A stretch of DNA of 60,797 nt from a virus, in the IMG/VR virus record IMGVR_UViG_3300028549_000940, positions 1 through 60,797 of that record. One strand, given 5' to 3'. Positions 3,495 to 24,160 of the stretch are shown here, in pieces. Each line of letters begins with the position of its first letter. Within the stretch, counting starts at the first letter, position 1. Below the pieces are notes generated by a model, which saw only the letters and a program-made list of their open reading frames with translations, did not search any database and had not been told where the DNA came from. Position numbers and translations under genes: made by a program.

Positions 3495-3526
3495 TAAAAA
3501 AGCCTACATATCCGTAGGCTTTTTTC
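3495..3526. terminator. Bidirectional rho-independent terminator between convergent genes
   Basis: AAAAAAGCCTAC-atatcc-GTAGGCTTTTTT: a 7-bp GC-containing stem flanked by an A-run and a T-run. Confidence 0.75.
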
Positions 3527-3547
3527 GTAAACTGTTTACAGATAGCA

Positions 3548-6779: not shown

Positions 6780-6833
6780 TAAGGGTTATATTTAATCTAT
6801 TACCTACACTTGCCTAAACAATATATTCAAGGT

Positions 6834-7412
6834 ATGGCAATAGGTGGGGTATTAGCAGTCGCAGGGATAGGGATGAGTATCTACGACAGGATGAAGAGCG
6901 CCAGCGCTAACAACAGGGCACAACAATACCTAAGGAATCAGAAGAAAACCCTAAACGATTATCTATACGGGGAGCTTTCCAAAAATTATATGGACTCGAA
7001 CGAGGGTCAATCTGCCATCAAATCCGTTCGGGACAGCATTACCAAGAACAACCGCTCGGCAGAGAACTCTGCAGCCGCATCCGGTGGAACGGACGAATCA
7101 AAGCTAGCTGTAAAAGAAGTCAACGCAAAATCCTACGGAGACACTATTGCGAATATGGCTACTATGGCCGAACAGCGAAAGGCAGGGCTAAGGGGACAGC
7201 TTATCGGAGCCAACGGAGCCTACGACAGCCAGATAGCAGGGTTTGATAAGGACAGAGCAGAGCAGATGTCAAACGCTGCCGGAAACGCAATTAGCACCGC
7301 CTCTTCTGTTATTGCTGCCGACGGAAAGGGGGCTTTTGACAAGTATGACGACAAGGTAAATAAGCTATTCAAGTGGGGGAAATACAGTCCCGACTATAAA
7401 CCAGAAGAGTAA
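6834..7412 (+). CDS. Membrane-anchored Q/N/A-rich protein (193 aa from ATG 6834; alternative TTG at 6810); possible internal virion or ejection protein
   Basis: N-terminal hydrophobic helix MAIGGVLAVAGIGMSIY. First gene of the block that ends with the portal. Confidence 0.55.
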   Translation: MAIGGVLAVAGIGMSIYDRMKSASANNRAQQYLRNQKKTLNDYLYGELSKNYMDSNEGQSAIKSVRDSITKNNRSAENSAAASGGTDESKLAVKEVNAKSYGDTIANMATMAEQRKAGLRGQLIGANGAYDSQIAGFDKDRAEQMSNAAGNAISTASSVIAADGKGAFDKYDDKVNKLFKWGKYSPDYKPEE

Positions 7413-9220
7413 TGGGAATCACTAAAGATAAAGCACCAGCCATAGCAGACACACCAGCCCCAACACCCGCAGCCGTTGATCCTGCTATGTTTACCCCTGA
7501 GACGCTTGCCCTCAAGCTTAAAGAGCTTGGGCTTAACGATCACCGAGCGCTTAACAAGACAGCGGCCCAGATGAATAAGGTCGGAACGATCATAAGAACA
7601 TACACCGATGCTAACCCAGCCGCATTTGCTAAATACGTAAGGGTGGAGAACGGACAGGTAACCGGAAGAAACCTAAACCTTCTGGTAAACGACATACTCC
7701 CTGCCGAGCAAGAGTTTGGTATGAGCGGAACCGGATTATCAAAGCACACCATCGATCCGTTCCAGTGGCAGGACCCAGACCCAAAGGAAGGTGAGACGTT
7801 TGGAGAAGGTGGGATTATTAAGCCGGTTGCTTCTAACGCTGGTATAGCCGTAGGACAAACCCACGAAGAAGGTGGAATAAAGATCGGGAAAAACGAGGTA
7901 GAGAACAACGAAACCCTCGTAAATGATGGAAAAGATATAAAGGTTTACTCCGACAAAAGAGGCTATGCCGATCAGGCGAATAAGCTGGTTGCTGAAAAGG
8001 GACAGCTAGAAAAGGCTATTGAGGGTATTGACTCCAAGCTCGACAACCTGTTCAACCAGCAGGAGAACTCATTTGCAGATGGCGGGAAGTTTCCTGTTCC
8101 TGATGAGTTTCCAATCAACGGAACACCAGAGGAACAACGCGCTTGGATGTGGGACTATCCTGACCCTGTAGCGGACATTAAGGCAACACCAGATCCTGTA
8201 TCTTTCAGCGAAAAGGTGAAAACAGATGCAAACAGCAAAGCAACATCCGAACTTGTTAACTCAGTAAAAGAATACAGCTACAAAGAGCCGGTAAAGGTAG
8301 TTCCAAAGCCGACCTATCACGAGCAGCTACTCTCTCTTGTTGAAGAGCTAAAACCTACGCCAGACAAGAAGCAGGAAACCAACCTAAAGAGAGCCGCGAA
8401 GTATCAGGCAATAGCAGACTTTGTAAGTGTATTAGGGGATTCGTTCTACGGGGCGAAGGGTGCAAAGATTAATCCAAGAGAACCCGGCGTTACCGGTTCG
8501 CTAAAAGCCTTGCAGGACTACTACGACAAGCTAGCAAGCGGAGAGGCTACGTATAGAAGCACCAAAATTGGATTACTCTCAAAGCTGGCAGATAAGGCAG
8601 ACGCTAAAGACGCGCTTGCAGAAGGAAGAACATACCAAGAAGGCAGGGACAAGCTGAAAGCCGATGCCGAGGATGAAAGGTTTAAGGCAAAAATTGCAGC
8701 TGACGAAAAGGCTTTAGGCAGAAAATTAACAGCGGCAGAGAAAATTGCAGCGAAAAGGCTTGCTGCACAAAAGAAGGACAAGCCAGACAAGGGAGCCACG
8801 AGATACGGAGTTATTTCCGACGGAAAAGAGTATGGGTTGACCGCCGCTCAGGTTTCTAACGTAGTGGGAGAGTTTACCAAGAAATACACAGGCATACTCA
8901 CCAACAAGGACGCAAAGACACCGTTCCCCACAGAGCTTCTTCCTGTTTTAAAGCAACTGCTACAGGGTGGAATGTTGAGCAACATGGGCCAACAAATGGA
9001 GCTGATTAACCGATTTGCGAAGTATGACCCAGCGATGAAGTCATTAATTCAATCATACGGAGGAGAGACATCTACTACTCCAAAGCAGGACGACACCGCC
9101 CCAATTGCTCCTGACTACAGTATGCCCGGAAGCAACGAAGCCTACGTTTCACCCGGACAAGCCGCCTTGACAGAAGAAGAATTGCAATCAAAGATCGACA
9201 ACCTCGACTTCAACTTTTAA
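7412..9220 (+). CDS. Putative internal virion or ejection protein (602 aa)
   Basis: TAATG coupling to the upstream gene. K/A/E-rich helical C-half. Lies directly upstream of the giant gene. The function is inferred. Confidence 0.5.
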   Translation: MGITKDKAPAIADTPAPTPAAVDPAMFTPETLALKLKELGLNDHRALNKTAAQMNKVGTIIRTYTDANPAAFAKYVRVENGQVTGRNLNLLVNDILPAEQEFGMSGTGLSKHTIDPFQWQDPDPKEGETFGEGGIIKPVASNAGIAVGQTHEEGGIKIGKNEVENNETLVNDGKDIKVYSDKRGYADQANKLVAEKGQLEKAIEGIDSKLDNLFNQQENSFADGGKFPVPDEFPINGTPEEQRAWMWDYPDPVADIKATPDPVSFSEKVKTDANSKATSELVNSVKEYSYKEPVKVVPKPTYHEQLLSLVEELKPTPDKKQETNLKRAAKYQAIADFVSVLGDSFYGAKGAKINPREPGVTGSLKALQDYYDKLASGEATYRSTKIGLLSKLADKADAKDALAEGRTYQEGRDKLKADAEDERFKAKIAADEKALGRKLTAAEKIAAKRLAAQKKDKPDKGATRYGVISDGKEYGLTAAQVSNVVGEFTKKYTGILTNKDAKTPFPTELLPVLKQLLQGGMLSNMGQQMELINRFAKYDPAMKSLIQSYGGETSTTPKQDDTAPIAPDYSMPGSNEAYVSPGQAALTEEELQSKIDNLDFNF

Positions 9221-9230
9221 ACGATAAGCC

Positions 9231-12200
9231 ATGCCTAACGATAAACTCCAACAAGCCGCCTCTAAGTTCAACCAAACCATTCAGGGCATTCACCCTGAAT
9301 TGGTAATTAAAAACCCAGAGAGCAAAGAAGAGTGGGACAACGCTATAGGATCTCTCAAGAAGAGCGGAATTAATACAAGCAAGATAGAGGGTATTTACCA
9401 GCTGTTTGGTAATGGTATTAGCGAGAAAGTTGAAACACCTACCCCCGCTGAGGTTAAGCCACCTGAAAACATGGTAGATGATTTGTCTACCGAGGAAGGA
9501 AAGAAGCGATACTACGAAACCCACGGGGCCGGGACGAGACTTGTAGAGGGAGTTGACGCAGGATTTAACCAAACCACAGGAGGAATAAGAGTAGGTTATG
9601 GGAATGTAGCCAAGGAGATGACGGGAGAAGCACCTCTGGAACGGGTATCTAGGTCGATTGATTTAGGAAGAATACCACAGGGAAAGACTATTTCAGAATA
9701 TGAATCGCTTCTTGCAAAAAGAGAAGAGGAATTCGCCGACCTACTCAAGCGAAGGGCCGCAAAGTATGAGTTCATCCGTAGGGATAATAAGTTTAGTGAT
9801 AACCCAACCATAAACACCGGAGAAATTGCCATACCATCTAATGAATGGAAGGAGAATGGTGCAGAGATTGAGCGACAGGCTACCGATTGGGATAAGAGAG
9901 CGGGTTACGATCAGAAAAGATATGAGATAAGCGATCTAAAGGAATACATTGACCTTGCCAAAAAAGAAGGCGTAGAGGGAGCGACTAAAAAGGCACGTGA
10001 GGCTGTAAAAACCGTATCGTGGAATGACGAAGTAATAGCCCAAGGAGTAAAGGATATCGATGTAGATGCGCCAAAGGGAACCGGGTTGATTTACGGTGTT
10101 GGAGTATTTTCCACACAAGTAGTTCCGGTCGTAGCATCTGCGGCAGTCGCTCCATTTACCGCAGGAACATCACTAGGATGGATACCGGGGGCTATTGGAG
10201 CGTCTACTATGGGCGTGTTGGCTTCTGGTTCTGCTGGTCAGTTCATGCACGAGTATGATAAATACACTAGTGAGAATAATATAGAGCCAGATCAGGGAAT
10301 GAAGTTCGGTGGTGCCGCAGCCTACTTTGCATTTGAGCTTATTGGTGAGCAGATGGCGCTGGATGCCGCACTTAAAAAAATTACCTCGCAGTATATCAAG
10401 AAATCGGTTATTGCCGGAGTCCCAAATAAGGCCATGGACTTGATGCAAGCCTACCTTGAGAAGAATCCTGCAATGGCGAAGAAATTTATCGGAGCCGCAA
10501 CGGACTATATCGACAACGGAGTGTCCGAGGCCACGAGTGAGGTGTTTACTTCGCTAGGGCAAGACCTATCCTATAACATATCTAGAGACAAAGAGTTTCA
10601 GAAAGGATTTAAGGAGGTTATACTTGACGCCTACGAATCTGCCAAGGGCGGGTTTATGATGTCTGGAATAACAAGCCCTATGATCAAGATGGGGCAACAC
10701 TACCAACAAAAGAAGGGCATTAGGGATAACGGAATTACCCTAGTGGAGGATAAGGTTTCGGGAACCCCATACCAGTTCATGGAGGCCAACGATGATGGTT
10801 CTGTGCTGGTCATGGATAAGCTGGGGAACGAAAAGAAGATCCCGACGGAAAACGTAGGCAGGATACAGCAGTATGACGCGAAAACCTACCAAGAGCTAGT
10901 TCAGCAGCACAAGGAAGGGAAACAAATAACCATATCCAACCCCGGAGATATTCTTGCTCAATCAAACGAGCAGCAGATGGGTAACAACTTTGGGAAGTTT
11001 GCCGACGAAAACGGGCAAATGAACATGGCTACCGACAGCCAAGGGAACACGCTCTTTATTACCGACATCGACGAAAAAACCTACGGGGCTGTAAATGCTA
11101 TTACCGGGGAGAAAACCACCATTGCCAAAACAAGTGTTTCGAGCGTTGGGAGTGAGAACCTTGGTATTCTATCCGCTAACTCCATATCTCAATCGCTATA
11201 CACTTCCGGGTATCTATACGGAGGCCAAGGAAAGGCAGTAAGCATACAGGAAGCGGTTGATGACGCTATCAGTAAAGGCCAAACCGCCGAGACTATGGCG
11301 GTAACTGCCAATGAGCACATGGATATGGTCGCTCAGGCCATTCAAGCCAACGACATGGCCGGAGCCGCTGAGAATACCATCAAGGCCAACTTTTACACTA
11401 ACCTAGCCAAGGAACTTGCAAATATAACGCCAAAGGCAGAAGTTGTTGCCGGAGGAACTATCCTGTTTAACGGAAAGCAACATAACGTTATTTCGGTGAA
11501 CAACGGCATTGCTGAACTAGAAGAGGTAACTGAGGACGGGTTGGGTAAGTCATTCGACGTTCCGGTTGAAGAAATACAGCAACAAATTAAGCCAGAGGTC
11601 AGTGAGCTTACAGTAAATCCTACTGTACCAGAAGTAGCAAAAACAGCACAAGAGCCAGTATTACAAGAAGATTTAAACACAGTAAATCAAGAAGTTGCAG
11701 CAAATATAGAACCCGTACCGACAGAGCCAAAAACATACGACATTGAGGTAGGAAAGGAAACTGTTAAGGCTGTTCAGCAGGATAACGGAACCTTTCTTCT
11801 TGGGAAAACATACACCAAGAGCGAGCTGGAAAAGGCAGGGAAGCTTGTAGAAGTTCTTAACAAGGACTACGAGGATAACGGTTTATCTTTCGAGATTACC
11901 CCTCTACCAAAGCAAGACCCTGCCAACCCGTTCGAGAAGCCAACGTTTGCCATCGTGGCAAAACCTGTAATTGCAAAAGAAGAGCAAGTAATACCCGAAA
12001 GTGTAGCAGAGATACCTACTCCTTCAAAAACAGAGGACAACATACCTGTTTCTACACAGGAAGAGATCAAGCCAGTAGAGGCAGAAGTTGAACCAGCAGC
12101 TAAAGAAACTATACCTCCTATCGAGGAAGTAGCTAAAGAGTCGCCAAAAGTTGACGAGGTAAAACCAACCAAGCTAGACGATACCATAAAACACCTTGAG

Positions 12201-15200
12201 GTTATATCCGAGGGAGAACAAGTTGATAAATCACCCACCGAAGCGCAAAAGGAGGCCGGAAACTACAAGAAGGGACACACTGTCGTTCAGGGCTTCGATA
12301 TTACCATCGAAAACCCGGAAGGAAGCAAGAGAAGCGGAACAGACGGAGGGGGTAACAGGTGGGAAACTACCATGCACAACACCTATGGATACTTTAAGCG
12401 AACCAAAGGAAAAGACGGCGACCAAGTAGACACCTTCTTAGGGCCGAACCCTGAGACTGGAAAGATATACGTGGTCGATCAGATGGACTCCAATACGGGT
12501 ATGTTTGACGAGCACAAGGTAATGCTTGGGTTTAACTCTGAAGAACAAGCCAAAACCGCTTACCTATCGAACTACTCTAAGGGTTGGTCGGGATTGGGTG
12601 CCATCACCGAAATGGGGCACGATGAGTTTAAGGGCTGGTTGAAGGATGGTGATAGAACAACGGTTCCTGCTTCTTTTAATGCCGAGGCAGAGAGAAAGGC
12701 AACCGAGCACCTAGAAGCGTTGAAAGAACCTACCATAGTTCCAGCAGACCCCATCGTTTCTCACAACAACCTCGTTAGACAGGTTAAAAACTACAACGGG
12801 TTAACTAAATACCAGCGCGGGACAAAGGCAAATAGGCGATTATTTAAGACCTTGAGCACCTTGGCTACTAGGCTTGAGTATGGAATTACCCAAAACACCG
12901 ACGGCTCCTTAAACGTAACCAAAGGGGGTAGTAAAATACGAACTATCACCCAGAAGAAAACCAAGGAGGAGATTAATGCTCACAAATTGCTAACTGAATA
13001 CCCTCAAGAGTTCCAAGACTTCGCCAACTTTATTATGGGCGTTGACAACCTTGGGTATATCGACGTAGATATGGACAAAAAAGCCGTATCTCAGGGTATT
13101 AAGAACATTAAAGAAGGTAAGAAAACTGTTGCCGCCAACGCGCTTCTGGATGAACTTTCCGCTATTTACAACCTTGGAGAGATTCATTTGTCAAATAATG
13201 GCGAAGGAACGCGCGTTTCTCTGCAAGAGTTTCGTAACTTGTATTCGTCCGAAGAAAAAGGAGCCGCAGAAGAGCAACAGTCAAACGAACTATTTGAGCC
13301 AACCGAAGAGGGTGAATTTGTAGAAGATTACAACCAAACGCTTTTAAATGCCATTGCCGATAACTCCATCACCAAGGAGAACGTTGAATCGTTCGATTGG
13401 CTGTTAGGGGAGGCAATGCTTAACGATATTAAAACTATTCTATATGAAACTGAGCAAGGAAATAATAGCAGCCCTTCCACCGGATCAGAAGCAGGAAGCG
13501 CTATTACAGGTGAAAAAAGCGATAATGCAGCAGATCGAGTCGATGCCGGAACCAAAGAGGTCGGAAGCGTTGAAGAACCTGGACTCTCTGAAGCTACAGG
13601 GAATCAAGATGGCCGCGATGCAGCGAACCCAGAGCAAGTTGCTGAAAAGGGGTTAACCGAGCTACAAAAAAGCGAAATTGAGGCCAAAACCGGCGAACTT
13701 TCCCGTAAAATTGAGGCAAAAAGAGCAGAACTAGTTGCCGAAAGAGGCAAGTTACAGGCCAAAAAGAACGAGCTGGAGGGTAAAAAAACTACCCAAACTT
13801 CACTGTTTGGCACCGAAAAACCACAGTTTGCCGGTCAACTGTTCGATATTCCCGCTGATTTCTCACAGGGAAGCATCACCCGCGCCCTTAAGGACTTAAA
13901 GAGCGGTATTACAATTAAAGAAAAGGAGCTGACTGACCTTGTTACTAAGCGTGACGAGATCGTTAAGTCTATTGTGGATAGCGCCACGGCACAGCAGGAA
14001 CTGGATTTGAGTAAGGAGGCAATTAAAGAAGAAAAACCCACCTATCAAGTTCCTTCATCATTCACCGCTCAAACCATAAGCGAGTTCTCCGATGAGTTAG
14101 ACAGGGGTAATATTAACATTGACTCGTTTAAAAAGGCTTTCGAGGTATTCTTGGCAAGCAAAGAGGCGATCACCCAAGAGCTGAGCGGCAAGACAAAAGC
14201 CGAGCTGCTTTCCGGTATGAACGCCATGGGAAGGTATCGATATAAAAATGAGAAGAAGGACGCAACTGTAAGGGCTATTTATGGCAGCCACCTAATGACG
14301 TTCTCGTTTGGTTCTCTTGTGTATGATTTCAGCAAAAGCACAGAAGAGGTAGTAAGCGAAAAGGTAGCGAAAACTACTCAAGCGGACATAGACAACCATG
14401 TAAGCGAAGTAAACAAGCAGATCGAGGACTACAAGGCGCGAGTAGCCGAGTATAAAAAAGCCCTTACTAACCCAGAAACAATTGCCGAGTTTGGAATATT
14501 CATTGCAAAGAACGGTAAGGATGCGTTAAGCGTAGAGCAGAAAGCAGCCTACGACAACCTTATTACAGATAAGGTTTTTGATAAGCGCAGCGCAGAGGCC
14601 GAGAAAAAGGCAGAAGTTTCTAAGGTGGAGATAGGCGATACCGGCATGAGCCTTATTGAAACAAAACACACCAAGACTGGAGAACCAATATTCGTAGTCA
14701 CCCTTTCGAATAGGGTTGATTCTGACACCTACAAGGACTTAAACGCAAAGGCCAAGAAGTTAGGAGGCTACTACTCTTCTTTTAGAGGTAATGGGGCTAT
14801 ACCCGGATTTACCTTTAAGGATAAATCACAGGCAGAAAACTTCATGGCGCTGAAAGAAGGCGATGTGTCAACTTCCTCAGAAGAAGTAAAAGCAGAGGAG
14901 ACTAAGTTTAAGGCCGATAAATTGAGGGATGCTGCACAAAAAATGATTGAAAAGGCAGATGAGTCTTTAGGAAGAGAAAGGCTAACCAACACCTATAAAA
15001 GAGCCAACGAAGCAAGCCGTGCCGATGCCAACGCTAACGAAGAAAAGCGTATTGCTGAAACGATGGTAAACATTGCCGACGCTATAGATGCAGGAAACGT
15101 AAAACTTCTTAACGGTGTGAAAGCAAAAACGCACATTGAGCTGCTTGAGATGATGGTTAGAACATCCAAGAACCAAGAAATAGCAGCCAAGTATCCTAAC

Positions 15201-18200
15201 GATAGGATTAAGCACAAGGATGATCCTGCAACGCTTGAAACAATCGAATATTTAAGGTTTGGATACTACCCAAGCATATACGGAAGAGCTATCGTTGATA
15301 TTGCAAACAAAGCAAGCAGGAAAAGTGGACTAAAACAGGTTGCGGCCAGATGGGAGAAGAAGCTAAACAGTCTATCGGAATACGAGAACTACCAAGTTAC
15401 CTCAGATAGGGAGATCGACGAGCTTACAGAAATGTTTAATGCGCTTCCCGAAAAGGAAAAAAGTTACAGCCAAGTAGGCAACAGCCTCGCCAACCACAAA
15501 AGGCTAAAAGCAATGGGGATAGAAAACGACTCCATGCTTCGCGCTGTGCTAAGGGAGTATATTCAGTATCGCGGAAAAGTTAAAGAGGCAAACAAGGTAA
15601 AGGAGTTAGAACGGGCAATCGTAGGGAGAAACGTAGGTTTTGACTTCTTCCCCACCCCTTCTTCCGTGGCTGAATTGATGGTAAATGAGGCCGGTATTAC
15701 TGAAAACATGGACGTTTTAGAGCCAAGTGCCGGAAACGGAAACATTGCCGATGCAATAAAATCAAGCAATATCATTCCCGACGTAATCGAGCTATCCTCG
15801 GAGCTATCAAAAATTCTCGAAGCAAAAGGCTATCCGGTAGTTGGTAGCGATTTTATGTCCTACAACGAAAAGCAGTATGACCGAATAGTAATGAATCCCC
15901 CATTTTCTAACGGAGCAGATGGGGAGCATGTAATACATGCCTATGAACTGCTAAAACCCGGAGGAAGAATAGTTGCCATAGTTGGAGAGGGAACGTTTAT
16001 CAGAAGCGATAAAAAGGCGGTCAGTTTTAGGGAATGGCTCGACCAAGTAAACGGAAGCGAAGAGAGGTTGCCACAGGGAACCTTTAGCGATAAGAAGCTA
16101 TTAAATACAACTCAGGCCAACGCCAGAATGGTTGTGATTGACAAACCAGAAGCTTCTGTTCAGTTCCGCAAAACCTCACCATACTACGCCAACGCAGAGC
16201 GCGCACTTTCGTCCATTGAAATGAGCAAGGCCACCCCCGAGCAGTGGAAGGCCATGATACTAAAAGGAGGTGCTAAGGAAACAGAACTAAGGTGGATGAA
16301 TTGGGATGATTTCGCCAAGGATAAAAAGTCTATCACCAAGGAAGAGGTGCAGCAGTTTATCGATGGGCAAAAGGTAGTAGTTGAAGAGGTGGTAAAATCA
16401 CAATCAAAAACTATTACCAGAGAAGAAGCCTTAAAGGCGCTAGATAGAGGTATTGAGGTTTATGGAATACATCAAGACGGAAGCGAGTTTCTTATTGAAA
16501 ATCTTGATGATCTTGATAGAGCCGAAAAACTAGCTTTTGAAGAAGATTTAGCGCCTAGCGAAACCAAATACTCCCAATACACCACTCCCGGAGGAAAGAA
16601 CTACAAGGAGGTGTTACTTACGTTGCCAAATCAAACAGATGGTAAGATTTGGAAAATAAAGGCCGGAGATAATTCAACTCAAGTATGGAGCAAAGAATTT
16701 ACGAATGAAAGCGAATATCAATCGTATATTGAAGGATTAAAGCAAGACGGAATACCATTCAAAACTACTGTAAAAGGAAAAGACAATCCTGCATTCTCAT
16801 CTTCACACTATGACGAAAAGAACATTGCCGCGCATATTCGCCTTGCTGAATTTACCACCAAGGAAGGAAAGAGAGCGCTTCATGTTGAAGAGGTGCAGAG
16901 CGATTGGGCGCAGAAGGGAAAGAAGGATGGGTTTAAAACAAAAACAGAGGCACAGCTATACGCAGAACTGGAATCCAAGGGTATATATAGAGATAAAAAC
17001 TCTACTATGAATACATCTTTTGTTGATAAAGATGGAAGCCAAATCTATCACCCAAATCCCAATGTAAAGCGAAGTTCTACGCCAGAGCAAGATGCGGCCA
17101 TTGATGAGTTTTTTAAAGGACTAAAATCTGGTGACATTCCCGACATGCCCTTCAAGCAAACCGACCAATGGGTAGGATTAGGCATGAAGTGGGCTTTGAG
17201 GTATGCCGCCGAGAATGGGTTCGATGTGGTAACATGGACCACCGGAGAGCAACAGGCTGACAGGTATGATTTGAGTAAAAAAGTAGACAAAATTCATTAT
17301 AACAAAAATAATGGAATCTTAAGAGTTGACGGTATCAACGGAGAATCAATATTTAATGATTATGTAGAAGAAAATGGCATTCAAGATATAGTAGGAAAAG
17401 AAATAGCTGATAGAATTATCGCTAAATCAAACGACAACAAAGGAGAATATGTATCAATTTCAGGAGACGGGCTAAAGATTGGCGGCGAAGGAATGAAAGC
17501 CTTTTACGACAACATCGTTCCTTCGTGGGTGAACAAGTATGTAAAGAAGTGGGGCGCCAAAGCCGGAGCTACCGAGATTGACACCAAACCAGAATTAACC
17601 AACGATGGAATAAACCTCGACAGCGGAGAGATAAACCAACCAACAAATGGAAAGTTTACCACCGTCCATTCGGTAGAGGTTACTCCTTCAATGACCGTAT
17701 CTGTAATGGAAGGACAGCCGATGTTTAGAGCTTCTGAAAGGGTATTTGCTGATGTAACTAAAGAGCGCCACCACCAGCAAGTATCTAAAGCGGTAAACGA
17801 CCTTCAAGAGAAAGCACCCAACGCACTTCCGTTACGGGTTGTTCGGAATAATAAAGAGCTAAGCGAGGCCATAAAAGACCTTTCAAAAATAGAGCAAGAA
17901 GGCATCCAGGAAGCAATCAACAAAGGTTCTACCATATTTGGGTTTAAATCTAGTAAAGCTGTGTTTATTGTATCAGAAAGTATGGCTGATGAAAATGAAG
18001 CCATTCATACTTGGATACACGAGCAAGGAGGCCACTTAGGTATTGAATTGCTGATACCTAATGAAGATAAGCGAAATGCTTTCTTTGAGGCAGCATACGA
18101 AAGCGTAGGCGAAGAGCAGTTCAAAAAATTGCTTGATGAAATAGATCCAACCGGAGAGATTTACGCTACATACAAAAAAGCCAGCAAGGCTGAAAAAGGC

Positions 18201-21200
18201 TCAGAATACCTAGCTTTCTTGGCAGAAAAGATACTAAACCGGGAGCAAATGACACCTGATCAGTATAAGTTTTGGTCGGTTATTCGTCAAAAGATACTGG
18301 AACTCATAAATAGGGTATTGACTTCGCTCGATAAAAGAGCTACATTTACAGACAGAGAGTTGGCCTTAATTGTTAAGGCCGGAGCAAGTAAACTATATGA
18401 GGATAAGGGTAGATTTGAGACAGGAAACAATACTGAACAACAGGAAGGCGCGAATGCTTCCAACGGTTCAGCGCTACGAGGAGATCGTGGGGGTATTCTT
18501 GTCGTGCCCGAGATTCAGAATACGGTTAGTAGCCCCAATCTTCAAGCCATTCACGCTGAACGAGCATATCGAGAATTCGATCCCATCGCCACGCATAAAG
18601 TTGCCCATGACGCGCTCCTTCGCTCAGTCCCTAATTCAAAACTAGAAAGGCTTTCTTTCGGGCACGGGACCAACGTAGAGTTTTCAAACTTTGACATTAA
18701 GTATGCAGGAACCGGCACCGGGGAGAAGATTCACGGTTACGGGTTATACCTTTCCATCACCGCTAACGATCCAGCTGTTGCTGTAACCTACGCCAACAAG
18801 GTAGCATTTACCTCTGCCGAGGTAAGAAAGTATGCAGAAGGTATTAGCGAGAAATACGGGCATTTGGCTTTTAAAGCATTCGAAAAGGCTACCTACGACA
18901 CCAAGAGAGGGAAAGACCTGCTTACCTCCTTAAAAGATCGATATGCTGAAACGGGAAAACCGTATATCAAGAGCGTAATCGACCACGTAGAAAGCAACCC
19001 TATTCCATTTTCAAAAATCGTTTACTTCGGGCAAATGGAGAAACCAGACGGCACCCCATTTCACTTTATCGAGTGGGATACCGAGTTTGTCTATAAAGAC
19101 CAGTGGGACGCTATCACCAACGGATTAAATAGGGAAGGCCACAGCGTAGACGAATGGTTGGAAAGGTTGGGCGAAGAAGCATTGCTTGACGATGGACAGC
19201 TGAACGGAAAACAAGTTTACAGATCACTAGCTAAGCTACTAGCTGAAAAGAGTGACGATTCAAACGGTAGCCCAAAGAACGCTTCTGAGTTTCTATACAG
19301 GGCCGGTTTCGACGGGACTACCTACGCCGACAAGGAAATGGTAGACGGAAAGGAGAGGTATAACGTGTGCTCGTTTTCTGACAAACCTATTCATATTACC
19401 GAAACGGTGAAGTTTAGGAAGAAGGACAAGACCCCTGCCGAGATGTCTAGGCTTGATGTCCAGATTAGGAGATTTGCCGATAAAATGATCGCACAGAAAA
19501 ACGTCGAAAAAGAGATACTACGAAGAGGTGGAAGGATTACCGACGCCTCAAACGTTTCGATGCAAGAAAACCTATCCTCTTCCATCGCCAGCGAGGCCAT
19601 GAAGAAATTCAACAGAGAGATGGTTAAGCCGTATGTTGAAACTATTGTCTCGGTAATGCAAGAGGGAAACTTAACCCAAGAGGATATTGAGAAGTATCTT
19701 ATTGCCAAACACACACCCGAAAGAAACAAAACCTTTAGGGATTTAGGCAAGGAGGGAGATACCTTTTCGGGCATGGATGAGAAAGAGGCGCTTGATAGAG
19801 TTAAAGATGTAGAGGGGAAAGTATCTGGTAAGCTGATAAGCAAATTGTGGGAGAAAACCAACGCTATTACCAAGTTCGCTCTTGATTACGATTTAGCCTG
19901 TGGAAGAATAAGCAAGGAGACACACGACAGGTATACCGGACCAGATAACGAGTGGAAGCACTACGTTCCACTAAAGGGATGGGAAGCAGAAACCTTAGAT
20001 GATGCCGACTACGTAGACACCGGAAGCGGATCATTCACGCCTACCTTAAAGAAGGCCAAGGGCAGAACATCGGCCTCGGATACTCCTATTCACTACATGA
20101 TATCGGCTGCTTACTCATCGATTGCCGCCGGAGAAAAAAATAAGGTAAAGGCTGCTGCAGTTCGCTTGGCTACCAACAACCCGGATATGACCGATATATT
20201 CCACCTTAAAAAAGTATGGATGGTTAAATCTGGCTTGAAAGACGAAAACGGAAAAGACATTTACTTAGAAACTACTGAAAAGCCATCACCCGAGCAGTTT
20301 AACCAAGGATTGGTAAAAACCAAGATTGATACCCGGCATGAAGTAGGTAAGCCAAGAGATAAATCAAAACAAGAAGAAGTTACCGCTTACATCAAAGGGG
20401 AAAAATACACCGTAATCTACGAACCAAAGTATGTGGCAGCGGCCAATGCAATAAACAAGGTTACTGGTGAAAAGACAGCAAAGGCAAATGATGTTATACA
20501 GGGAACCATTGGCATATTTACCAGATGGTTGTCGGCAAACTTTACCTCTAAGAGTCCTGACTTTATCCTACCAAACTTTGTGCGTGACGTATCGTTTGGT
20601 TTTATGAGCGAAAGCCTTAAGGAAGGTAAAGGGTTAAAGTTTCTTGAGAACACCAGAAAGGGGATGGCTACCATTCACAGAGCCTACGCAAACAAGTTGG
20701 ACCCAAAGAATCCAATCGATGTTCACTACCAAAACTGGCTTAAGAACGGAGGTCCTACCGGGTTCGTTCACCTTGGATCGCTGGAGAGCATAAAGTCAAA
20801 CATTAACCTAGAGGTTAAACGGTTGATGAAAGACAATAGCTTGTGGGATAAAACAACCCAAAATAGGCTGTTCAAAAAGTTGGGTGCGATGATGGATTAC
20901 GCCGCAATCATGTCGGAAAATGCATCGCGGTTTGGGGTTTACCTTACCTCTATCGAGCAGGGTAAATCGGAAGCCAAGGCAGCGCACGACGGGAAAGAGG
21001 CTACGGTTAACTTTAATACCAAAGGGGAATGGTCTGGAATTATTGGAGGATTCTTTACGTTCTTCAACGCCTCAGTTCAGGGTGGAAAAACATTCGCTAA
21101 GCTAGGTTACGAAAACAAGGGTAAGATGGCTATTGCTGGAGCTTCGTTTATGGCCCTTGGATACCTTGTTGCTGCGATGAACAGGTTTATGGACGACGAC

Positions 21201-22214
21201 GAAGAGTATGATAAGGAAAACCCATACATCAGGGAAAACAACCTTATATTCAAGTCGGGCAAGAACCATGTTATGATACCACTCCCACACGGGTTTAGAA
21301 TGTTCTACGCGCTAGGGGTTATTATAAACGACTTGGAGCACGGAAAAGAAACTGTCAGCGGTGCCACCAGAAGAGGCATGTCGTCAGTAGTTAGCTCGTT
21401 CTCGCCTATTGACCCTGTTGGGTTAGTAGATAAAAAAGGAAGTTTATCTCTACGGCCTATAATTCCAACTACAATGATTCCAATATATGACATAGCTAAA
21501 AACGAAGATTTTGCCGGACGGAAGATACACAACGAGCCGTTTATGCTTTCTAAGGAAAATGTTCTTGCTGATAGAGGTCTTGGACTTAAAAATGTAAACC
21601 CGTTTTTACAGCAAGCATCTGACATATTGTTTGAACTAGGCGGTGGAGAATTAGATACCGGATTAAAGACAAAAATAGCTGACGGAAAAGAGTCTAGGAT
21701 AAAAGGAATATATGACCTTAACCCATCAGATGTTGAGCACATAATATCATTCTACACCGGAGGAAGAGGCCAGTTCTTTAACAACGTGATAAAGATGGGT
21801 AACTCTATTGTAGATCAATCAAAAGAGTATGCCAAGGACAAGGATTTGAAAAAAGCAGTTGACGGGTTGGATATAAACTCTATGCCAATACTTAGAAGGT
21901 TTTACAAAGAGCCTTGGGCCGGAAGCAACTACAAGGAATTTATCAAGATACGTGACGAAGTGGAGGCGTATAAAGCGACTCTCACGGAATACGAGAAGAT
22001 GATGGTAAACAACGTTCCTCGGTATATTGGCGCCATGACGGCTATGGACCTTCAGCAAAAGGCTATCATATACGAGTCATTCAATAAGAGTATTAAAGAA
22101 TTGAACGCGCAAGCCGATAACCTTATGGAATACTCCGACCCAAGCGCGATAATTGAGCAAAAAGACCAGCTAGTAAACCAGATGATAGAACAAGTTAACA
22201 ACCTGAAACGATGA
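9231..22214 (+). CDS. Giant multidomain (polyvalent-type) protein, 4327 aa, probably virion-packaged
   Basis: One uninterrupted 12,984-nt ORF. It contains hydrophobic segments, a P/E/V/K-rich spacer, a pyrophosphatase-like module, an EPSAGNG/NPPF methyltransferase module, an HVEEVQSDW region and C-terminal membrane helices. It overlaps the portal gene by ATGA. Confidence 0.9.
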   Translation: MPNDKLQQAASKFNQTIQGIHPELVIKNPESKEEWDNAIGSLKKSGINTSKIEGIYQLFGNGISEKVETPTPAEVKPPENMVDDLSTEEGKKRYYETHGAGTRLVEGVDAGFNQTTGGIRVGYGNVAKEMTGEAPLERVSRSIDLGRIPQGKTISEYESLLAKREEEFADLLKRRAAKYEFIRRDNKFSDNPTINTGEIAIPSNEWKENGAEIERQATDWDKRAGYDQKRYEISDLKEYIDLAKKEGVEGATKKAREAVKTVSWNDEVIAQGVKDIDVDAPKGTGLIYGVGVFSTQVVPVVASAAVAPFTAGTSLGWIPGAIGASTMGVLASGSAGQFMHEYDKYTSENNIEPDQGMKFGGAAAYFAFELIGEQMALDAALKKITSQYIKKSVIAGVPNKAMDLMQAYLEKNPAMAKKFIGAATDYIDNGVSEATSEVFTSLGQDLSYNISRDKEFQKGFKEVILDAYESAKGGFMMSGITSPMIKMGQHYQQKKGIRDNGITLVEDKVSGTPYQFMEANDDGSVLVMDKLGNEKKIPTENVGRIQQYDAKTYQELVQQHKEGKQITISNPGDILAQSNEQQMGNNFGKFADENGQMNMATDSQGNTLFITDIDEKTYGAVNAITGEKTTIAKTSVSSVGSENLGILSANSISQSLYTSGYLYGGQGKAVSIQEAVDDAISKGQTAETMAVTANEHMDMVAQAIQANDMAGAAENTIKANFYTNLAKELANITPKAEVVAGGTILFNGKQHNVISVNNGIAELEEVTEDGLGKSFDVPVEEIQQQIKPEVSELTVNPTVPEVAKTAQEPVLQEDLNTVNQEVAANIEPVPTEPKTYDIEVGKETVKAVQQDNGTFLLGKTYTKSELEKAGKLVEVLNKDYEDNGLSFEITPLPKQDPANPFEKPTFAIVAKPVIAKEEQVIPESVAEIPTPSKTEDNIPVSTQEEIKPVEAEVEPAAKETIPPIEEVAKESPKVDEVKPTKLDDTIKHLEVISEGEQVDKSPTEAQKEAGNYKKGHTVVQGFDITIENPEGSKRSGTDGGGNRWETTMHNTYGYFKRTKGKDGDQVDTFLGPNPETGKIYVVDQMDSNTGMFDEHKVMLGFNSEEQAKTAYLSNYSKGWSGLGAITEMGHDEFKGWLKDGDRTTVPASFNAEAERKATEHLEALKEPTIVPADPIVSHNNLVRQVKNYNGLTKYQRGTKANRRLFKTLSTLATRLEYGITQNTDGSLNVTKGGSKIRTITQKKTKEEINAHKLLTEYPQEFQDFANFIMGVDNLGYIDVDMDKKAVSQGIKNIKEGKKTVAANALLDELSAIYNLGEIHLSNNGEGTRVSLQEFRNLYSSEEKGAAEEQQSNELFEPTEEGEFVEDYNQTLLNAIADNSITKENVESFDWLLGEAMLNDIKTILYETEQGNNSSPSTGSEAGSAITGEKSDNAADRVDAGTKEVGSVEEPGLSEATGNQDGRDAANPEQVAEKGLTELQKSEIEAKTGELSRKIEAKRAELVAERGKLQAKKNELEGKKTTQTSLFGTEKPQFAGQLFDIPADFSQGSITRALKDLKSGITIKEKELTDLVTKRDEIVKSIVDSATAQQELDLSKEAIKEEKPTYQVPSSFTAQTISEFSDELDRGNINIDSFKKAFEVFLASKEAITQELSGKTKAELLSGMNAMGRYRYKNEKKDATVRAIYGSHLMTFSFGSLVYDFSKSTEEVVSEKVAKTTQADIDNHVSEVNKQIEDYKARVAEYKKALTNPETIAEFGIFIAKNGKDALSVEQKAAYDNLITDKVFDKRSAEAEKKAEVSKVEIGDTGMSLIETKHTKTGEPIFVVTLSNRVDSDTYKDLNAKAKKLGGYYSSFRGNGAIPGFTFKDKSQAENFMALKEGDVSTSSEEVKAEETKFKADKLRDAAQKMIEKADESLGRERLTNTYKRANEASRADANANEEKRIAETMVNIADAIDAGNVKLLNGVKAKTHIELLEMMVRTSKNQEIAAKYPNDRIKHKDDPATLETIEYLRFGYYPSIYGRAIVDIANKASRKSGLKQVAARWEKKLNSLSEYENYQVTSDREIDELTEMFNALPEKEKSYSQVGNSLANHKRLKAMGIENDSMLRAVLREYIQYRGKVKEANKVKELERAIVGRNVGFDFFPTPSSVAELMVNEAGITENMDVLEPSAGNGNIADAIKSSNIIPDVIELSSELSKILEAKGYPVVGSDFMSYNEKQYDRIVMNPPFSNGADGEHVIHAYELLKPGGRIVAIVGEGTFIRSDKKAVSFREWLDQVNGSEERLPQGTFSDKKLLNTTQANARMVVIDKPEASVQFRKTSPYYANAERALSSIEMSKATPEQWKAMILKGGAKETELRWMNWDDFAKDKKSITKEEVQQFIDGQKVVVEEVVKSQSKTITREEALKALDRGIEVYGIHQDGSEFLIENLDDLDRAEKLAFEEDLAPSETKYSQYTTPGGKNYKEVLLTLPNQTDGKIWKIKAGDNSTQVWSKEFTNESEYQSYIEGLKQDGIPFKTTVKGKDNPAFSSSHYDEKNIAAHIRLAEFTTKEGKRALHVEEVQSDWAQKGKKDGFKTKTEAQLYAELESKGIYRDKNSTMNTSFVDKDGSQIYHPNPNVKRSSTPEQDAAIDEFFKGLKSGDIPDMPFKQTDQWVGLGMKWALRYAAENGFDVVTWTTGEQQADRYDLSKKVDKIHYNKNNGILRVDGINGESIFNDYVEENGIQDIVGKEIADRIIAKSNDNKGEYVSISGDGLKIGGEGMKAFYDNIVPSWVNKYVKKWGAKAGATEIDTKPELTNDGINLDSGEINQPTNGKFTTVHSVEVTPSMTVSVMEGQPMFRASERVFADVTKERHHQQVSKAVNDLQEKAPNALPLRVVRNNKELSEAIKDLSKIEQEGIQEAINKGSTIFGFKSSKAVFIVSESMADENEAIHTWIHEQGGHLGIELLIPNEDKRNAFFEAAYESVGEEQFKKLLDEIDPTGEIYATYKKASKAEKGSEYLAFLAEKILNREQMTPDQYKFWSVIRQKILELINRVLTSLDKRATFTDRELALIVKAGASKLYEDKGRFETGNNTEQQEGANASNGSALRGDRGGILVVPEIQNTVSSPNLQAIHAERAYREFDPIATHKVAHDALLRSVPNSKLERLSFGHGTNVEFSNFDIKYAGTGTGEKIHGYGLYLSITANDPAVAVTYANKVAFTSAEVRKYAEGISEKYGHLAFKAFEKATYDTKRGKDLLTSLKDRYAETGKPYIKSVIDHVESNPIPFSKIVYFGQMEKPDGTPFHFIEWDTEFVYKDQWDAITNGLNREGHSVDEWLERLGEEALLDDGQLNGKQVYRSLAKLLAEKSDDSNGSPKNASEFLYRAGFDGTTYADKEMVDGKERYNVCSFSDKPIHITETVKFRKKDKTPAEMSRLDVQIRRFADKMIAQKNVEKEILRRGGRITDASNVSMQENLSSSIASEAMKKFNREMVKPYVETIVSVMQEGNLTQEDIEKYLIAKHTPERNKTFRDLGKEGDTFSGMDEKEALDRVKDVEGKVSGKLISKLWEKTNAITKFALDYDLACGRISKETHDRYTGPDNEWKHYVPLKGWEAETLDDADYVDTGSGSFTPTLKKAKGRTSASDTPIHYMISAAYSSIAAGEKNKVKAAAVRLATNNPDMTDIFHLKKVWMVKSGLKDENGKDIYLETTEKPSPEQFNQGLVKTKIDTRHEVGKPRDKSKQEEVTAYIKGEKYTVIYEPKYVAAANAINKVTGEKTAKANDVIQGTIGIFTRWLSANFTSKSPDFILPNFVRDVSFGFMSESLKEGKGLKFLENTRKGMATIHRAYANKLDPKNPIDVHYQNWLKNGGPTGFVHLGSLESIKSNINLEVKRLMKDNSLWDKTTQNRLFKKLGAMMDYAAIMSENASRFGVYLTSIEQGKSEAKAAHDGKEATVNFNTKGEWSGIIGGFFTFFNASVQGGKTFAKLGYENKGKMAIAGASFMALGYLVAAMNRFMDDDEEYDKENPYIRENNLIFKSGKNHVMIPLPHGFRMFYALGVIINDLEHGKETVSGATRRGMSSVVSSFSPIDPVGLVDKKGSLSLRPIIPTTMIPIYDIAKNEDFAGRKIHNEPFMLSKENVLADRGLGLKNVNPFLQQASDILFELGGGELDTGLKTKIADGKESRIKGIYDLNPSDVEHIISFYTGGRGQFFNNVIKMGNSIVDQSKEYAKDKDLKKAVDGLDINSMPILRRFYKEPWAGSNYKEFIKIRDEVEAYKATLTEYEKMMVNNVPRYIGAMTAMDLQQKAIIYESFNKSIKELNAQADNLMEYSDPSAIIEQKDQLVNQMIEQVNNLKR
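12230..12660 (+). other. Inorganic-pyrophosphatase-like module inside the giant protein
   Basis: GNYKKGHTVVQGFDITIENPEGSKRSG..YGYFKRTKGKDGDQVDTFLGP..DEHKVMLGF. DGDQVD resembles the family I PPase D-x-D-x-x-D signature. Confidence 0.45.
15630..16150 (+). other. AdoMet-dependent N6-adenine-type methyltransferase module inside the giant protein
   Basis: Motif I LEPSAGNGN (E codon at 15720) and motif IV NPPF (15894-15905) are both in frame and about 55 codons apart. Confidence 0.75.
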
Positions 22215-24133
22215 TAACGAACCCAACCGCCCAAGACTTCAAGAAGTTTAAGGATTCAGGAGCTCTACAACTCCCAAGATACTCGGAAGATAGCGCTGAT
22301 TTTAAGGTAGACCAAGCCCTTTTAATGGAGTGCATGAACCACTGGTCTAACCTAAGAGAGCTAAGAGAAAGAACCTCTAGGGCGCTGAGGTATGTCCGGG
22401 GCGACCAGTGGAAGGACTTTATTACCGACCCAAAAACCGGCAACCAGATTACCGAGGAGGACTACATTAAAGGTCAGGGAAAAATACCTTTAAAGCAGAA
22501 CCAAATTAGACAGCTGATGAACAACCGTATTGGTCAGTATCGGTCAAACCCAACAAAAAGCGTTGTGTTCACCCGAAGGAGAGAGGATGCGCCGGTTGCA
22601 GAAATGTTCTCCAACTCCTTAGAGTGCTCACTTCAATTAAACCAAGCCAAGCGGATTGATATAAGGAACTTCGAGCTGTTTCTTTCTTCCGGCACAGCAT
22701 TCTGGAAAACGGAGTATGACTACTGGGCAAATAGAAACATAGAGGACGTATTAATCACTACTCCTACTATATTCCGTATGTTCTTTAACACAGATATTGA
22801 GGATCACCGATATAGGGACTTGAGAATCATTGGAGAGCTGGTTGATTCCCCTATTGAAGAAATTATCAGGGCCTACGCAAAAACACCGGCACAGGAAAGA
22901 GCTATTAGGGCTATTTACAACCCTCAAATAAACCAGATACAGAATAACCAACTGCTAGCAAAAAGTAGGGCAAAGAACTTTCTCACCCCGGCTACCGGTA
23001 TGTGTAGAGTTATTCAGGTATGGTATCAAAAAGGTTCGTGGAAAACATACGTTCACGACACCATGGACGGCTCGTATAACATCGTTGAACAATCGGTGGA
23101 ACAGATTGGAATTTTAAACAGGCAGCGAATCGATGCCGCTGTTTCGATGGGGATAGAGGAAGCAAAAGTTCCATTAATGACCGCCGAAACGAAGTTCGAA
23201 CGGCAGTGGTATGTTAAGCACATGACTACCTCCGGCCACGTTTTATATGAAGCGTTAAGCCCATACGAGCACGAGGAACACCCATACACACTACTACTTT
23301 ACCCGTTGATGGATGGAGAAGTTTGGGGATGGGTTGAGGACATTATTGACCAACAACGGTATGTAAATAGGCTTATGACCATGATGAACATGATTATGAG
23401 CGATAAGGGGGCGCTGTTAATACCTTCGGATAGCATACCGGATGATATGTCTCCAAGTGATTTTGCCGACGAGTATGAAAGCTTGAACGGCATAATTGTT
23501 TACAAGCCAAATGCGAATAGAGTTGTTCCTCAGCACGTGCAAAACAACTCCACCGCTGCCGGTCTTGGGGAAATATTTACTATTCAAATGAACCTACTAA
23601 AGGAGATCGGGGGAACCGGAGGAGCAATCCAAGGTATAGCCCCATCGAGCGGAACACCCTCATCGAGGTATGCTATGGAGGCACAAAATTCCTCTATTAA
23701 CTCCATCGACACCAACCAAACATTTGCGGAGTCTATCAAGGAAAGGGACTTGAAGGTAATAAAATTACAGCGACAGTTCTACGACCAACCTAGACACCTA
23801 GCCATTAGCGGAAAGGTGGCCTCTGAGGATTCGAGAACCTACGACCCAAAATTAGCGAAGAATGTAGAGATTGACATGACCGTTGCTCAGTCCACTGATA
23901 CGCCGATGTTCAGAATGGAGGCTGACAATATGCTTATGGAAATGGTTAAATCGCAAATGATTGATACTAAATTGTTCCTAGAGCACTGCTCTTGGCCGTT
24001 CGCTGACAAGTTACTTGATGCCATGGAAAAGAGGGCACAAGACCCGAACGCGGCCATTCCTCCGGAGGTGAATCAGGTGGTAAACCAAAACCCGAAGGCG
24101 CAGCAGATGCTTTCGCAAGCGATAGGAAGATAA
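22211..24133 (+). CDS. Putative portal protein (640 aa)
   Basis: Size and position in the morphogenesis block. N-terminal ..LRYVRGDQWKDF.. resembles portal-family sequences. Followed by a strong terminator. Confidence 0.55.
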   Translation: MITNPTAQDFKKFKDSGALQLPRYSEDSADFKVDQALLMECMNHWSNLRELRERTSRALRYVRGDQWKDFITDPKTGNQITEEDYIKGQGKIPLKQNQIRQLMNNRIGQYRSNPTKSVVFTRRREDAPVAEMFSNSLECSLQLNQAKRIDIRNFELFLSSGTAFWKTEYDYWANRNIEDVLITTPTIFRMFFNTDIEDHRYRDLRIIGELVDSPIEEIIRAYAKTPAQERAIRAIYNPQINQIQNNQLLAKSRAKNFLTPATGMCRVIQVWYQKGSWKTYVHDTMDGSYNIVEQSVEQIGILNRQRIDAAVSMGIEEAKVPLMTAETKFERQWYVKHMTTSGHVLYEALSPYEHEEHPYTLLLYPLMDGEVWGWVEDIIDQQRYVNRLMTMMNMIMSDKGALLIPSDSIPDDMSPSDFADEYESLNGIIVYKPNANRVVPQHVQNNSTAAGLGEIFTIQMNLLKEIGGTGGAIQGIAPSSGTPSSRYAMEAQNSSINSIDTNQTFAESIKERDLKVIKLQRQFYDQPRHLAISGKVASEDSRTYDPKLAKNVEIDMTVAQSTDTPMFRMEADNMLMEMVKSQMIDTKLFLEHCSWPFADKLLDAMEKRAQDPNAAIPPEVNQVVNQNPKAQQMLSQAIGR

Positions 24134-24160
24134 AAAAAGCCCCATAGTTGGGGCTTTTTC
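24132..24160. terminator. Bidirectional rho-independent terminator
   Basis: AAAAAAAGCCCCA-tagt-TGGGGCTTTTT between convergent genes. Confidence 0.75.

Follow-up and report, generated by a model that had tools for sequence, protein, structure and literature searches.

The viral record IMGVR_UViG_3300028549_000940 of IMG/VR, which was analyzed over its whole length of 60,797 nucleotides (nt) and is referred to here as the window, devotes 21.4% of its sequence to a single gene. We consider it likely that the product of this gene, a giant protein of 4327 amino acids (aa), is packaged in the virion and injected into the host as a polyvalent protein, and that it belongs to the LPD38-terminated family of Bcep22-, F116-, and 933W/phi24B-like podoviruses. 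Support for packaging and injection comes from homology and sequence signatures, this phage being known from its genes. That such a protein exists will not surprise a specialist; the added value lies in its architecture, a cysteine (Cys) signature, an unnamed 520-aa module, and two structural models without neighbors. What is new here is a domain map with conserved end modules, exchangeable cargo between them, and both fused and split variants. Giant polyvalent virion proteins cost phages a fifth of their genome, and we know of no member with a known structure or mechanism. With the present example the family would reach into a temperate lineage with ties to Bacteroides phages, in which such proteins have so far been annotated only as hypothetical.

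A first-pass annotation of the window had likened the protein to the polyvalent proteins of phages, and the comparison holds up well. InPase and LPD38 are phage-only Pfam domains whose definition goes back to the study on polyvalent proteins by Iyer et al. (2017; PMC5512222); with a DNA methyltransferase and at least three further bounded modules, the protein carries the several (2–15) effector-type domains that characterize the phage type. It is encoded among the virion genes of a phage with portal and terminase, overlapping the portal gene and with terminase, capsid, and tail genes nearby. As in other LPD38-terminated giants, LPD38 (PLxRFG) sits near the C-terminus within a conserved module of ~900 aa, and a protein of more than 2500 aa follows smaller virion proteins in a temperate podovirus of ~60 kb, here a 60.8-kb window that encodes an integrase.

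Virion relatives and a cysteine signature

First, relatives of the giant protein have been found in virions. H66 gp60 is noted in its record as a virion part verified by mass spectrometry. JC1 gp69, a 4515-aa protein with LPD38 that takes up 22.1% of its genome, was detected with 51 unique peptides and the second-highest score among the virion proteins identified by mass spectrometry, and two further virion proteins, gp67 (196 aa) and gp68 (510 aa), precede it. phi24B gp47 (2811 aa; LPD5, LPD1, LPD38, and MuF-C) was found in abundance by proteomics yet is missing from the cryo-electron microscopy (cryo-EM) map, and its authors propose that it is an encapsidated ejection protein. These three are homologues of the present protein by the C-terminal module or the methyltransferase region.

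Second, the protein and its two upstream neighbors, a 200-aa and a 602-aa open reading frame (ORF), nearly lack Cys. The trio contains 2 Cys in 5129 aa, both of them in the giant, against an average of 1.07% for the remaining 47 window ORFs (binomial P 6e-18). Relatives show the same scarcity (P0143, 0 in 5586 aa; P0148, 0 in 4125; douglas gp62, 0 in 3026; POCJ13 gp71, 0 in 2793; H66 gp60, 1 in 3787; BS-TP4 gp3, 4 in 5391), and their immediate upstream partner ORFs are Cys-free, with the one exception of the outermost ORF of the relative L003, which has 3 Cys. The experimentally proven ejection proteins of T7 (gp14, gp15, and gp16, with 1 in 196, 0 in 747, and 0 in 1318 aa) and N4 (gp52, gp51, and gp50, with 0 in 150, 0 in 644, and 0 in 3500 aa) behave likewise, whereas the replication enzymes of these two phages contain 0.75–2.7% Cys. 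The gene order small, medium, giant is common to T7, N4, JC1, and this window. The early impression that the trio resembles an ejection or internal-virion protein set thus agrees with the virion location of relatives, the gene order, and the Cys counts alike. Cys avoidance may help to recognize ejected proteins from sequence alone; together with the small, medium, giant order it would offer a cheap screen to flag likely ejection proteins in metagenomic phages.

Could the protein stay behind in the particle, as an internal head or core structural protein, scaffold-like or DNA-organizing, whose enzymes act in the capsid or during assembly, for example by methylating DNA during packaging? Cys avoidance matches proteins known to cross the periplasm, and membrane-type hydrophobic helices have no obvious role inside a capsid; on the other hand, the giant gene adjoins the portal gene and is translationally coupled to it, and InPase is fused to portal proteins elsewhere (Pa193 gp19, BcepF1). 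phi24B gp47, abundant in virions yet unresolved by cryo-EM, can be cited for such a role, but the authors of that work argue for its ejection, and the cargo of other relatives (ART-PolyVal, MuF_C) is expected to act on host targets. On balance we regard a non-ejected core protein as quite improbable and favor injection.

For an injected protein of this size, N4 provides a working model, since its giant virion RNA polymerase (vRNAP) was described as loosely connected domains that pass a channel of ~35 Å. The genes of all three sets (196/747/1318 aa in T7, 150/644/3500 aa in N4, and 200/602/4327 aa here) are consecutive, their products are Cys-poor, and the small protein has a hydrophobic N-terminus in each. 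The giant here, like the N4 vRNAP, is made up of loosely joined domains. There is no detectable homology in sequence or fold to the T7 and N4 proteins, except for a match of the 200-aa ORF to Pfam T7_gp14 (E 5e-4) that aligns over nearly the full length and, at 20.4 bits, falls below the cut-off of 27. Weak homologues of the 200-aa ORF occupy the same position in BS-TP4 (gp1) and L003 (213 aa). A BLAST comparison with T7 gp14 did not confirm the lead, and we treat the ORF as a candidate T7 gp14-like small ejection protein, as a lead only. The 602-aa ORF, an orphan in searches of PHROGs, Pfam, NCBIfam, and the phage collection (tblastn), would by position be the counterpart of the medium ejection protein (T7 gp15, N4 gp51, JC1 gp68). 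Neither it nor the giant matched T7 gp14, gp15, or gp16 in Pfam, PHROGs, or PDB sequences, nor did the two modeled modules of the giant in fold, and the giant cannot be placed in the T7 gp14–16 families. An RNA polymerase domain of the N4 type was likewise not found in Pfam, PHROG, and PDB sequence searches or in fold searches of the two largest modules; where the N4 giant is one polymerase, the present protein carries several small enzymes as cargo.

Domain map and family architecture

The modules of the giant protein, which was searched in segments (10 for the Pfam scan), are given in Table 1. Segment-wise Pfam found nothing except InPase, LPD38, and a weak MTS match, NCBIfam found nothing, and PADLOC returned methyltransferase models only. 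The first-pass annotation had left most residues unassigned. For function that still stands, while nearly all residues now lie in bounded modules with homologues. Its individual readings fared well for the most part: the hydrophobic glycine-rich segment, the pyrophosphatase-like module, the NPPF methyltransferase, and the HVEEVQSDWAQKG region (aa 2551–2563) are all present. The stretch rich in P, E, V, and K exists at aa ~780–1000 but is not a mere spacer, since it encloses a small conserved domain, and of the proposed C-terminal membrane helices only the one at aa 3966–3984 was retained. That hydrophobic transmembrane-like helix is conserved, with a basic N-terminal flank and an acidic run after it in 28 of 28 homologues. 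The second (aa 4014–4032) was rejected, being non-hydrophobic in homologues.

Table 1. Features of the four-gene unit and modules of the giant protein (window coordinates).
Feature	Position (nt)	Strand	Residues (aa)	Details
First gene of unit	6810..7412	+	200 in total	N-terminal hydrophobic helix aa 6–24, then A/S/Q/N-rich region; 0 Cys
Second gene of unit	7412..9220	+	602 in total	No transmembrane helix; 0 Cys; orphan
Third gene of unit (giant)	9231..22214	+	4327 in total	2 Cys
N-terminal conserved module	9528..11150	+	~100–640	Gly/Ala/Ser-rich hydrophobic helices aa 283–336 (nt 10077–10238), then small beta domain
Small recurrent domain	11706..11984	+	826–918	Inside P/E/V/K-rich linker; 45–57% identity to internal segments of other giants
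InPase	12240..12644	+	1004–1138	Pfam PF18823, E 5e-57, profile positions 1–135 of 135
Acidic, largely helical region	12744..14009	+	1172–1593	24–28% identity to L003_2399 and L008_2449 (split relatives)
F116/H66-gp60-like region	13962..15530	+	1578–2100	phrog_15406 7e-204, phrog_11358 2e-199
N6-adenine-type DNA methyltransferase, S-adenosylmethionine-dependent	15537..16178	+	2103–2316	Motif I VLEPSAGNG, motif IV NPPF at aa 2222
EEVQSDW module	16182..17735	+	2318–2835	~520 aa, sharply bounded
Candidate zincin-like metallopeptidase	17748..18395	+	2840–3055	WIHEQGGH (HEx3H, aa 2930), downstream EYLAFLAEK
Poorly conserved junction	18396..19412	+	3056–3394	Few homologues; matches gene boundaries of split relatives
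C-terminal conserved module	19413..22211	+	3395–4327	Mostly alpha-helical; LPD38 aa 3990–4193 (nt 21198–21809)
Portal gene	22211..24133	+		P22-type; Pfam P22_portal 2e-35, phrog_156 1e-61
Hairpin terminator (probable)	24134..24159	+		11-bp stem and T-run, directly 3′ of the portal stop

The two ends of the protein are large conserved modules. Only 27 clusters among 1.84 billion representative proteins match the N-terminal one, which has no Pfam or PHROG match, while the C-terminal one matches phrog_14770 (7.5e-111) and phrog_616 and contains LPD38 (PF18857, E 1e-24, 88 bits against a cut-off of 27). Between them, InPase, a family-I inorganic-pyrophosphatase-like domain of the polyvalent-protein type, retains all of the acidic residues that are invariant in its family and also matches the C-terminus of the Pa193 portal (PDB 9b41_L, E 8e-30). 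It is probably active, because its acidic and active-site residues (E1027, D1062, D1064, D1067, D1083, D1093, E1094, and K1096) are invariant in 9 homologues. The acidic region that follows has no family match. Farther along, the F116/H66-gp60-like region, which includes another small recurrent domain at aa ~1800–1875, is 35% identical to H66 gp60 and 31% to Vibrio phage douglas gp62, and the methyltransferase is 52% identical to H66 gp60; the latter matches phrog_9793 (1e-64), phrog_6263 "DNA methyltransferase" (6.5e-34), PADLOC MTase_II (3e-10), and PDB 1dus (E 4e-4). The segment at aa 2840–3055 is a candidate HEx3H peptidase by its motifs only; H-E-x(2–3)-H and EYxAFLxE (aa 2930–2998) are kept in the homologues P0001, L003_2399, and P0002, and no Pfam peptidase matched the giant in whole-protein or segment-wise scans. 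A processing metallopeptidase, MPTase-PolyVal, is frequent but not obligatory in phage-type polyvalent proteins (Iyer et al., 2017; PMC5512222).

The same frame recurs around different cargo. Seven other, independent giants (2868–6049 aa) match the N-terminal module near their own N-terminus and also end in the C-terminal LPD38 module. The C-terminal module of the present protein is 24–41% identical over ~900 aa to BS-TP4 gp3, POCJ13 gp71, L011, and P0129. What lies between varies: LPD14, InPase, LPD23, DUF6782, ART-PolyVal, and EEVQSDW in L011; InPase, LPD5, and LPD1 in P0140; EEVQSDW, MuF_C, and ART-PolyVal in P0159; and InPase with a methyltransferase in BS-TP4 gp3. The nearest parallels by portal are Bacteroides phage BS-TP4 and the IMG/VR contig L011, which share with this window the synteny of a small ORF, in part a medium ORF, the giant, and the portal gene. 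Their portals are 34–40% identical to the one here, their InPase domains 47%, and their C-terminal modules 24–33%; there is no similarity at the DNA level. L011 also has the ATGA-type overlap with the portal gene and an EEVQSDW module (36% identity), and differs in carrying ART-PolyVal, LPD14, LPD23, and DUF6782 where this giant has its methyltransferase. BS-TP4 gp3 (L002, 1511–17686, 5391 aa) is annotated as hypothetical only and is not discussed in the BS-TP4 paper.

Phages of the closest clade by portal (37–40% identity) invariably encode the C-terminal module in the ORF immediately before the portal gene, a position kept in BS-TP4, L003, L007, L008, and L011. The giant is fused in some of these phages, as here, and split in others: in L003 and L008 the region is encoded by genes of 2399/2449, 181, and 1025/1179 aa, the last being a stand-alone C-terminal module right before the portal gene. 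The poorly conserved junction corresponds there to the stretch that runs from the end of the 2399/2449-aa gene through the 181-aa gene to the beginning of the LPD38 gene. Because it stands directly upstream of the portal whether fused or split, the gene arrangement indicates that the C-terminal module functions as a unit of its own, with the remainder as attached cargo. The comparison set thereby provides module boundaries for experiments: the end modules are fixed, the cargo can be exchanged, and both fused and split forms exist.

The split relatives also raise the question whether the single ORF here is an assembly artifact or a recent, non-functional fusion of what are really several genes (~2400, 181, and 1025 aa), the more so as the least conserved stretch falls at those gene boundaries. 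We judge this very unlikely. As the first-pass annotation had it, the ORF of 12,984 nt is uninterrupted: it begins with ATG, has zero internal stops (the chance probability of 4327 stop-free codons at the base composition of the window being ~1e-116), and encodes a product of 480.5 kDa with a pI of 5.4. No competing ORF of more than 160 aa overlaps it in other frames, and no tandem repeats were found in it. An independent contig of the JGI (L004, 4425 nt) is 100% identical to window positions 19619–24043, which takes in the 3′ 2.6 kb of the giant ORF and runs across the giant/portal junction. Comparably long fused ORFs with the same end modules occur in independent data sets, among them those of L011 (4082 aa) and BS-TP4 (5391 aa), and the longest reaches 6049 aa. 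A megablast search of 50,697 phage records returned no DNA-level relatives of the giant ORF.

Beyond this clade, the known LPD38 giants of temperate podoviruses include Bcep22 gp75 and JC1 gp69 from Burkholderia phages, that of F116 and H66 gp60 (3787 aa) from Pseudomonas phages, and 933W/phi24B gp47 and POCJ13 gp71 (~2800 aa) from Stx phages. Like the present one, they are single genes that occupy about one-fifth of a genome of ~60 kb, follow small and medium virion proteins, and encode nearly Cys-free products. The C-terminal LPD38 module of ~900 aa in POCJ13 gp71 is homologous to the one here (26% identity, E 5e-53), and in H66 gp60 the similarity (35–52% identity) lies in the methyltransferase and the region upstream of it. 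The giants of the Bcep22, F116, and Stx phages differ in position, closing the morphogenesis block ahead of lysis rather than lying directly upstream of the portal as here and in the Bacteroides-phage-like clade, and in content, the present protein lacking their lytic transglycosylase, helicase, LPD5, LPD1, LPD3, and MuF_C. Its N-terminal hydrophobic and EEVQSDW modules have no BLAST match to H66 gp60, POCJ13 gp71, douglas gp62, or BS-TP4 gp3.

Another reading takes the protein for nothing but an anti-restriction effector like P1 DarB, packaged and injected, with all of its parts devoted to defense evasion; the conduit would be made by other proteins, and the end modules would be packaging signals or effectors. 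Iyer et al. (2017; PMC5512222) read such proteins as conflict effectors, and DarB-like is also the annotation given to the homologues in JC1 and Bcep22. The resemblance to DarB itself consists in a large, probably virion-borne protein with an N6-adenine methyltransferase domain and a plausible protection of incoming DNA. The match to phrog_10089 "DarB-like antirestriction" (2e-51), however, covers mainly the InPase region (aa 671–1163) and no DarB core. Because a helicase, which DarB and JC1 gp69 both have, is absent (no DExH/SNF2-type helicase in whole-protein and segment-wise Pfam), the giant does not strictly qualify as a DarB homologue, just as it is not an N4-type vRNAP. No partners of the DarA/Hdf type were recognized here, P1 is a myovirus, and the architectures are unrelated outside the methyltransferase fold. 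Furthermore, universal conservation in the family is confined to the N- and C-terminal modules, which do not look enzymatic and each contain hydrophobic helices, and the C-terminal one can stand as its own gene immediately before the portal. A structural or translocation role accounts for this better than an effector role does. A protein given over entirely to defense evasion therefore seems unlikely to us, though less so than a core protein, and we prefer an injected polyvalent protein in which cargo is combined with a delivery frame.

Two large modules and a proposed delivery route

About 1,450 residues of the giant make up two large modules without a counterpart among solved structures, the EEVQSDW module and the C-terminal module. 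At least 545 metagenomic homologues of the former were found at E<=1e-5 (8000 candidates scored), and its boundaries fall at 2318 and 2832–2837 in most of 120 listed proteins. Its partners in homologues are diverse (ART-PolyVal, MuF_C, GGDEF, lysozyme, SLT, 2H, LPD1, LPD38, and InPase). An alignment of 45 sequences has 19 invariant columns, including Y, E, N, R, an E-x-Q-S-D core, R, and Y-D; as these are mostly polar, the module is probably an enzyme. It has no Pfam model, a single PHROG touches it, and it is present in only 4 of the 50,697 phage records. One of the proteins with the module is the hypothetical gp34 (954 aa) of the T7-like Pelagibacter phage HTVC028P (L027, 7204–10068), which bears it at the C-terminal end and is encoded within the internal-virion-protein cassette. 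In the homologue P0002, a weak PAP_NTPase match (E 0.0075) was considered as a nucleotidyltransferase and rejected, the fold search having found none.

The AlphaFold2 model of the EEVQSDW module (aa 2310–2850) has a predicted local distance difference test (pLDDT) of 83 and a predicted template modeling score (pTM) of 0.76. Foldseek found no PDB match at E<0.1, only noise (GNAT, 2H, Ig-like; TM<0.1), and its only matches in BFVD were uncharacterized phage proteins with the same module; the sequence profile matched nothing among PDB sequences even at E<=10. The C-terminal module was modeled with a pLDDT of 77 and a pTM of 0.77 as mostly alpha-helical with two small beta inserts, and its Foldseek matches in the PDB were noise only, helical membrane transporters; no structural link to the solved ejection proteins of T7, DEV, or N4 could be demonstrated. 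These confident models, of 520 and 930 aa, are targets for structural and biochemical work, Pfam covering only LPD38, or ~200 residues of the larger.

How might such a protein reach the host? The genes of the 200-aa, 602-aa, and 4327-aa proteins and the portal are arranged as one late transcription unit, with overlapping or closely adjoining start and stop codons and a single terminator behind the portal gene. The overlap between the giant and the portal gene is of the ATGA type (…CGATGATAACG), as had been noted at the outset. The strong hairpin at 24134–24159 is the longest-stem terminator-like site on the plus strand between 6000 and 25500; lying right after the portal gene, it makes the four genes look like a single transcription unit of 17.3 kb (6810–24133), which it probably closes. 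The hairpin is flanked by A- and T-runs and lies between the convergent portal gene and an ORF at 24181–24699 (-), and it is probably a bidirectional terminator.

By analogy with homologues detected in virions, the three proteins would be loaded into the procapsid near the portal. On infection, they may exit by the portal–tail channel before or with the DNA, as a largely unfolded string of separate domains, and the near-absence of Cys could avoid disulfide trapping in the periplasm. Together with the membrane-anchored 200-aa protein and the 602-aa protein, the two end modules of the giant may then form or anchor a conduit across the envelope; since the modeled modules match nothing in the PDB, we can only infer this conduit role of the end modules. 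The exchangeable middle would act as cargo in the cytoplasm at DNA entry. InPase could clear pyrophosphate (PPi) or nucleotide signals, the substrates proposed for it by Iyer et al. (2017; PMC5512222), and the N6-adenine methyltransferase could protect the DNA as it enters, like P1 DarB. EEVQSDW would be enzyme-like cargo of 520 aa, and the candidate HEx3H peptidase could cut the polyprotein into units, consistent with the chain-cutting role assigned to MPTase domains in that study. An anti-defense role of the cargo is thus suggested by domain identity only.

Several observations weigh against this picture. No lytic transglycosylase or other cell-wall-degrading domain (SLT, lysozyme) was found in whole-protein and segment-wise Pfam scans, whereas T7 gp16 and JC1 gp69 each have one. 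The modeled regions (aa 2310–2850 and aa 3395–4327) resemble no solved ejection protein nor any other PDB entry. The T7_gp14 match is absent in positional analogues from five other phages, and a profile search with the 200-aa ORF gave no PDB match. Finally, the peptidase call rests on a short motif, and the HEx3H spacing is unusual.

A more far-reaching idea, which we put forward tentatively and would not bet on, is that the N-terminal hydrophobic module and the ~930-aa C-terminal LPD38 module constitute a self-contained delivery frame for portal docking, tail threading, and envelope insertion, into which almost any enzyme cassette fits. Equally speculative is that the C-terminal and EEVQSDW modules would be previously undescribed folds, with EEVQSDW as a new family of injected enzymes.

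The phage, its likely host, and other genes

The window encodes a terminase large subunit, an SU10-type major capsid protein (29505–30884), tail-fibre and tail-spike proteins, a tyrosine integrase, a C5 cytosine methylase, and an SNF2 helicase. Among the window ORFs that were scanned, none belonged to a sheath or tape-measure family, consistent with the earlier remark that such genes are missing. The phage is most likely a temperate, podovirus-like one with a Bacteroidota host. Two minus-strand genes at 42177–43439 and 45105–46262 encode a tyrosine integrase (Arm-DNA-bind_5 and SAM-like domains) and a separate C5 cytosine DNA methylase. The integrase indicates a temperate phage, and with the separate methylase the phage has at least two DNA methyltransferases.

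Among the 50,697 phage records, the nearest relatives by portal are the temperate Bacteroides phages BS-TP4, BKO1-TP3, and BF1-TP2 (32–34% identity), which come from sewage or the human gut. A Bacteroidota host is further supported by enrichment of the promoter consensus TTTG-N17-23-TAnnTTTG, with 7 sites observed against 2.45 expected and 0 of 100 shuffles reaching 7. The sites include 28570–28601 (-), 58053–58084 (-), 59415–59446 (+), and four others, several of them just upstream of ORFs such as the terminase gene and ORF 59470. A single-sequence search of GTDB genomes found no prophage copy or close relatives; in IMG/VR, a single sequence found no close relatives, and a profile search recovered 18 loci.

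BS-TP4 has been reported in 31% of gut viromes of one cohort, and its genome also encodes a 2645-aa target protein (gp14) of a diversity-generating retroelement (DGR) together with a reverse transcriptase. In the window, an 898-aa ORF upstream of the four-gene unit (3548–6244, -) matches only phrog_32516 (function unknown, 7e-31) and no Pfam family. Lastly, an intein appears to interrupt the 851-aa SNF2-family helicase at 49862–52420 (-), in which an Intein_splicing match (aa 172–530, E 2.5e-7, 31.1 bits, below the cut-off of 35.8) sits between SNF2-rel_dom (aa 24–165) and Helicase_C (aa 684–792).

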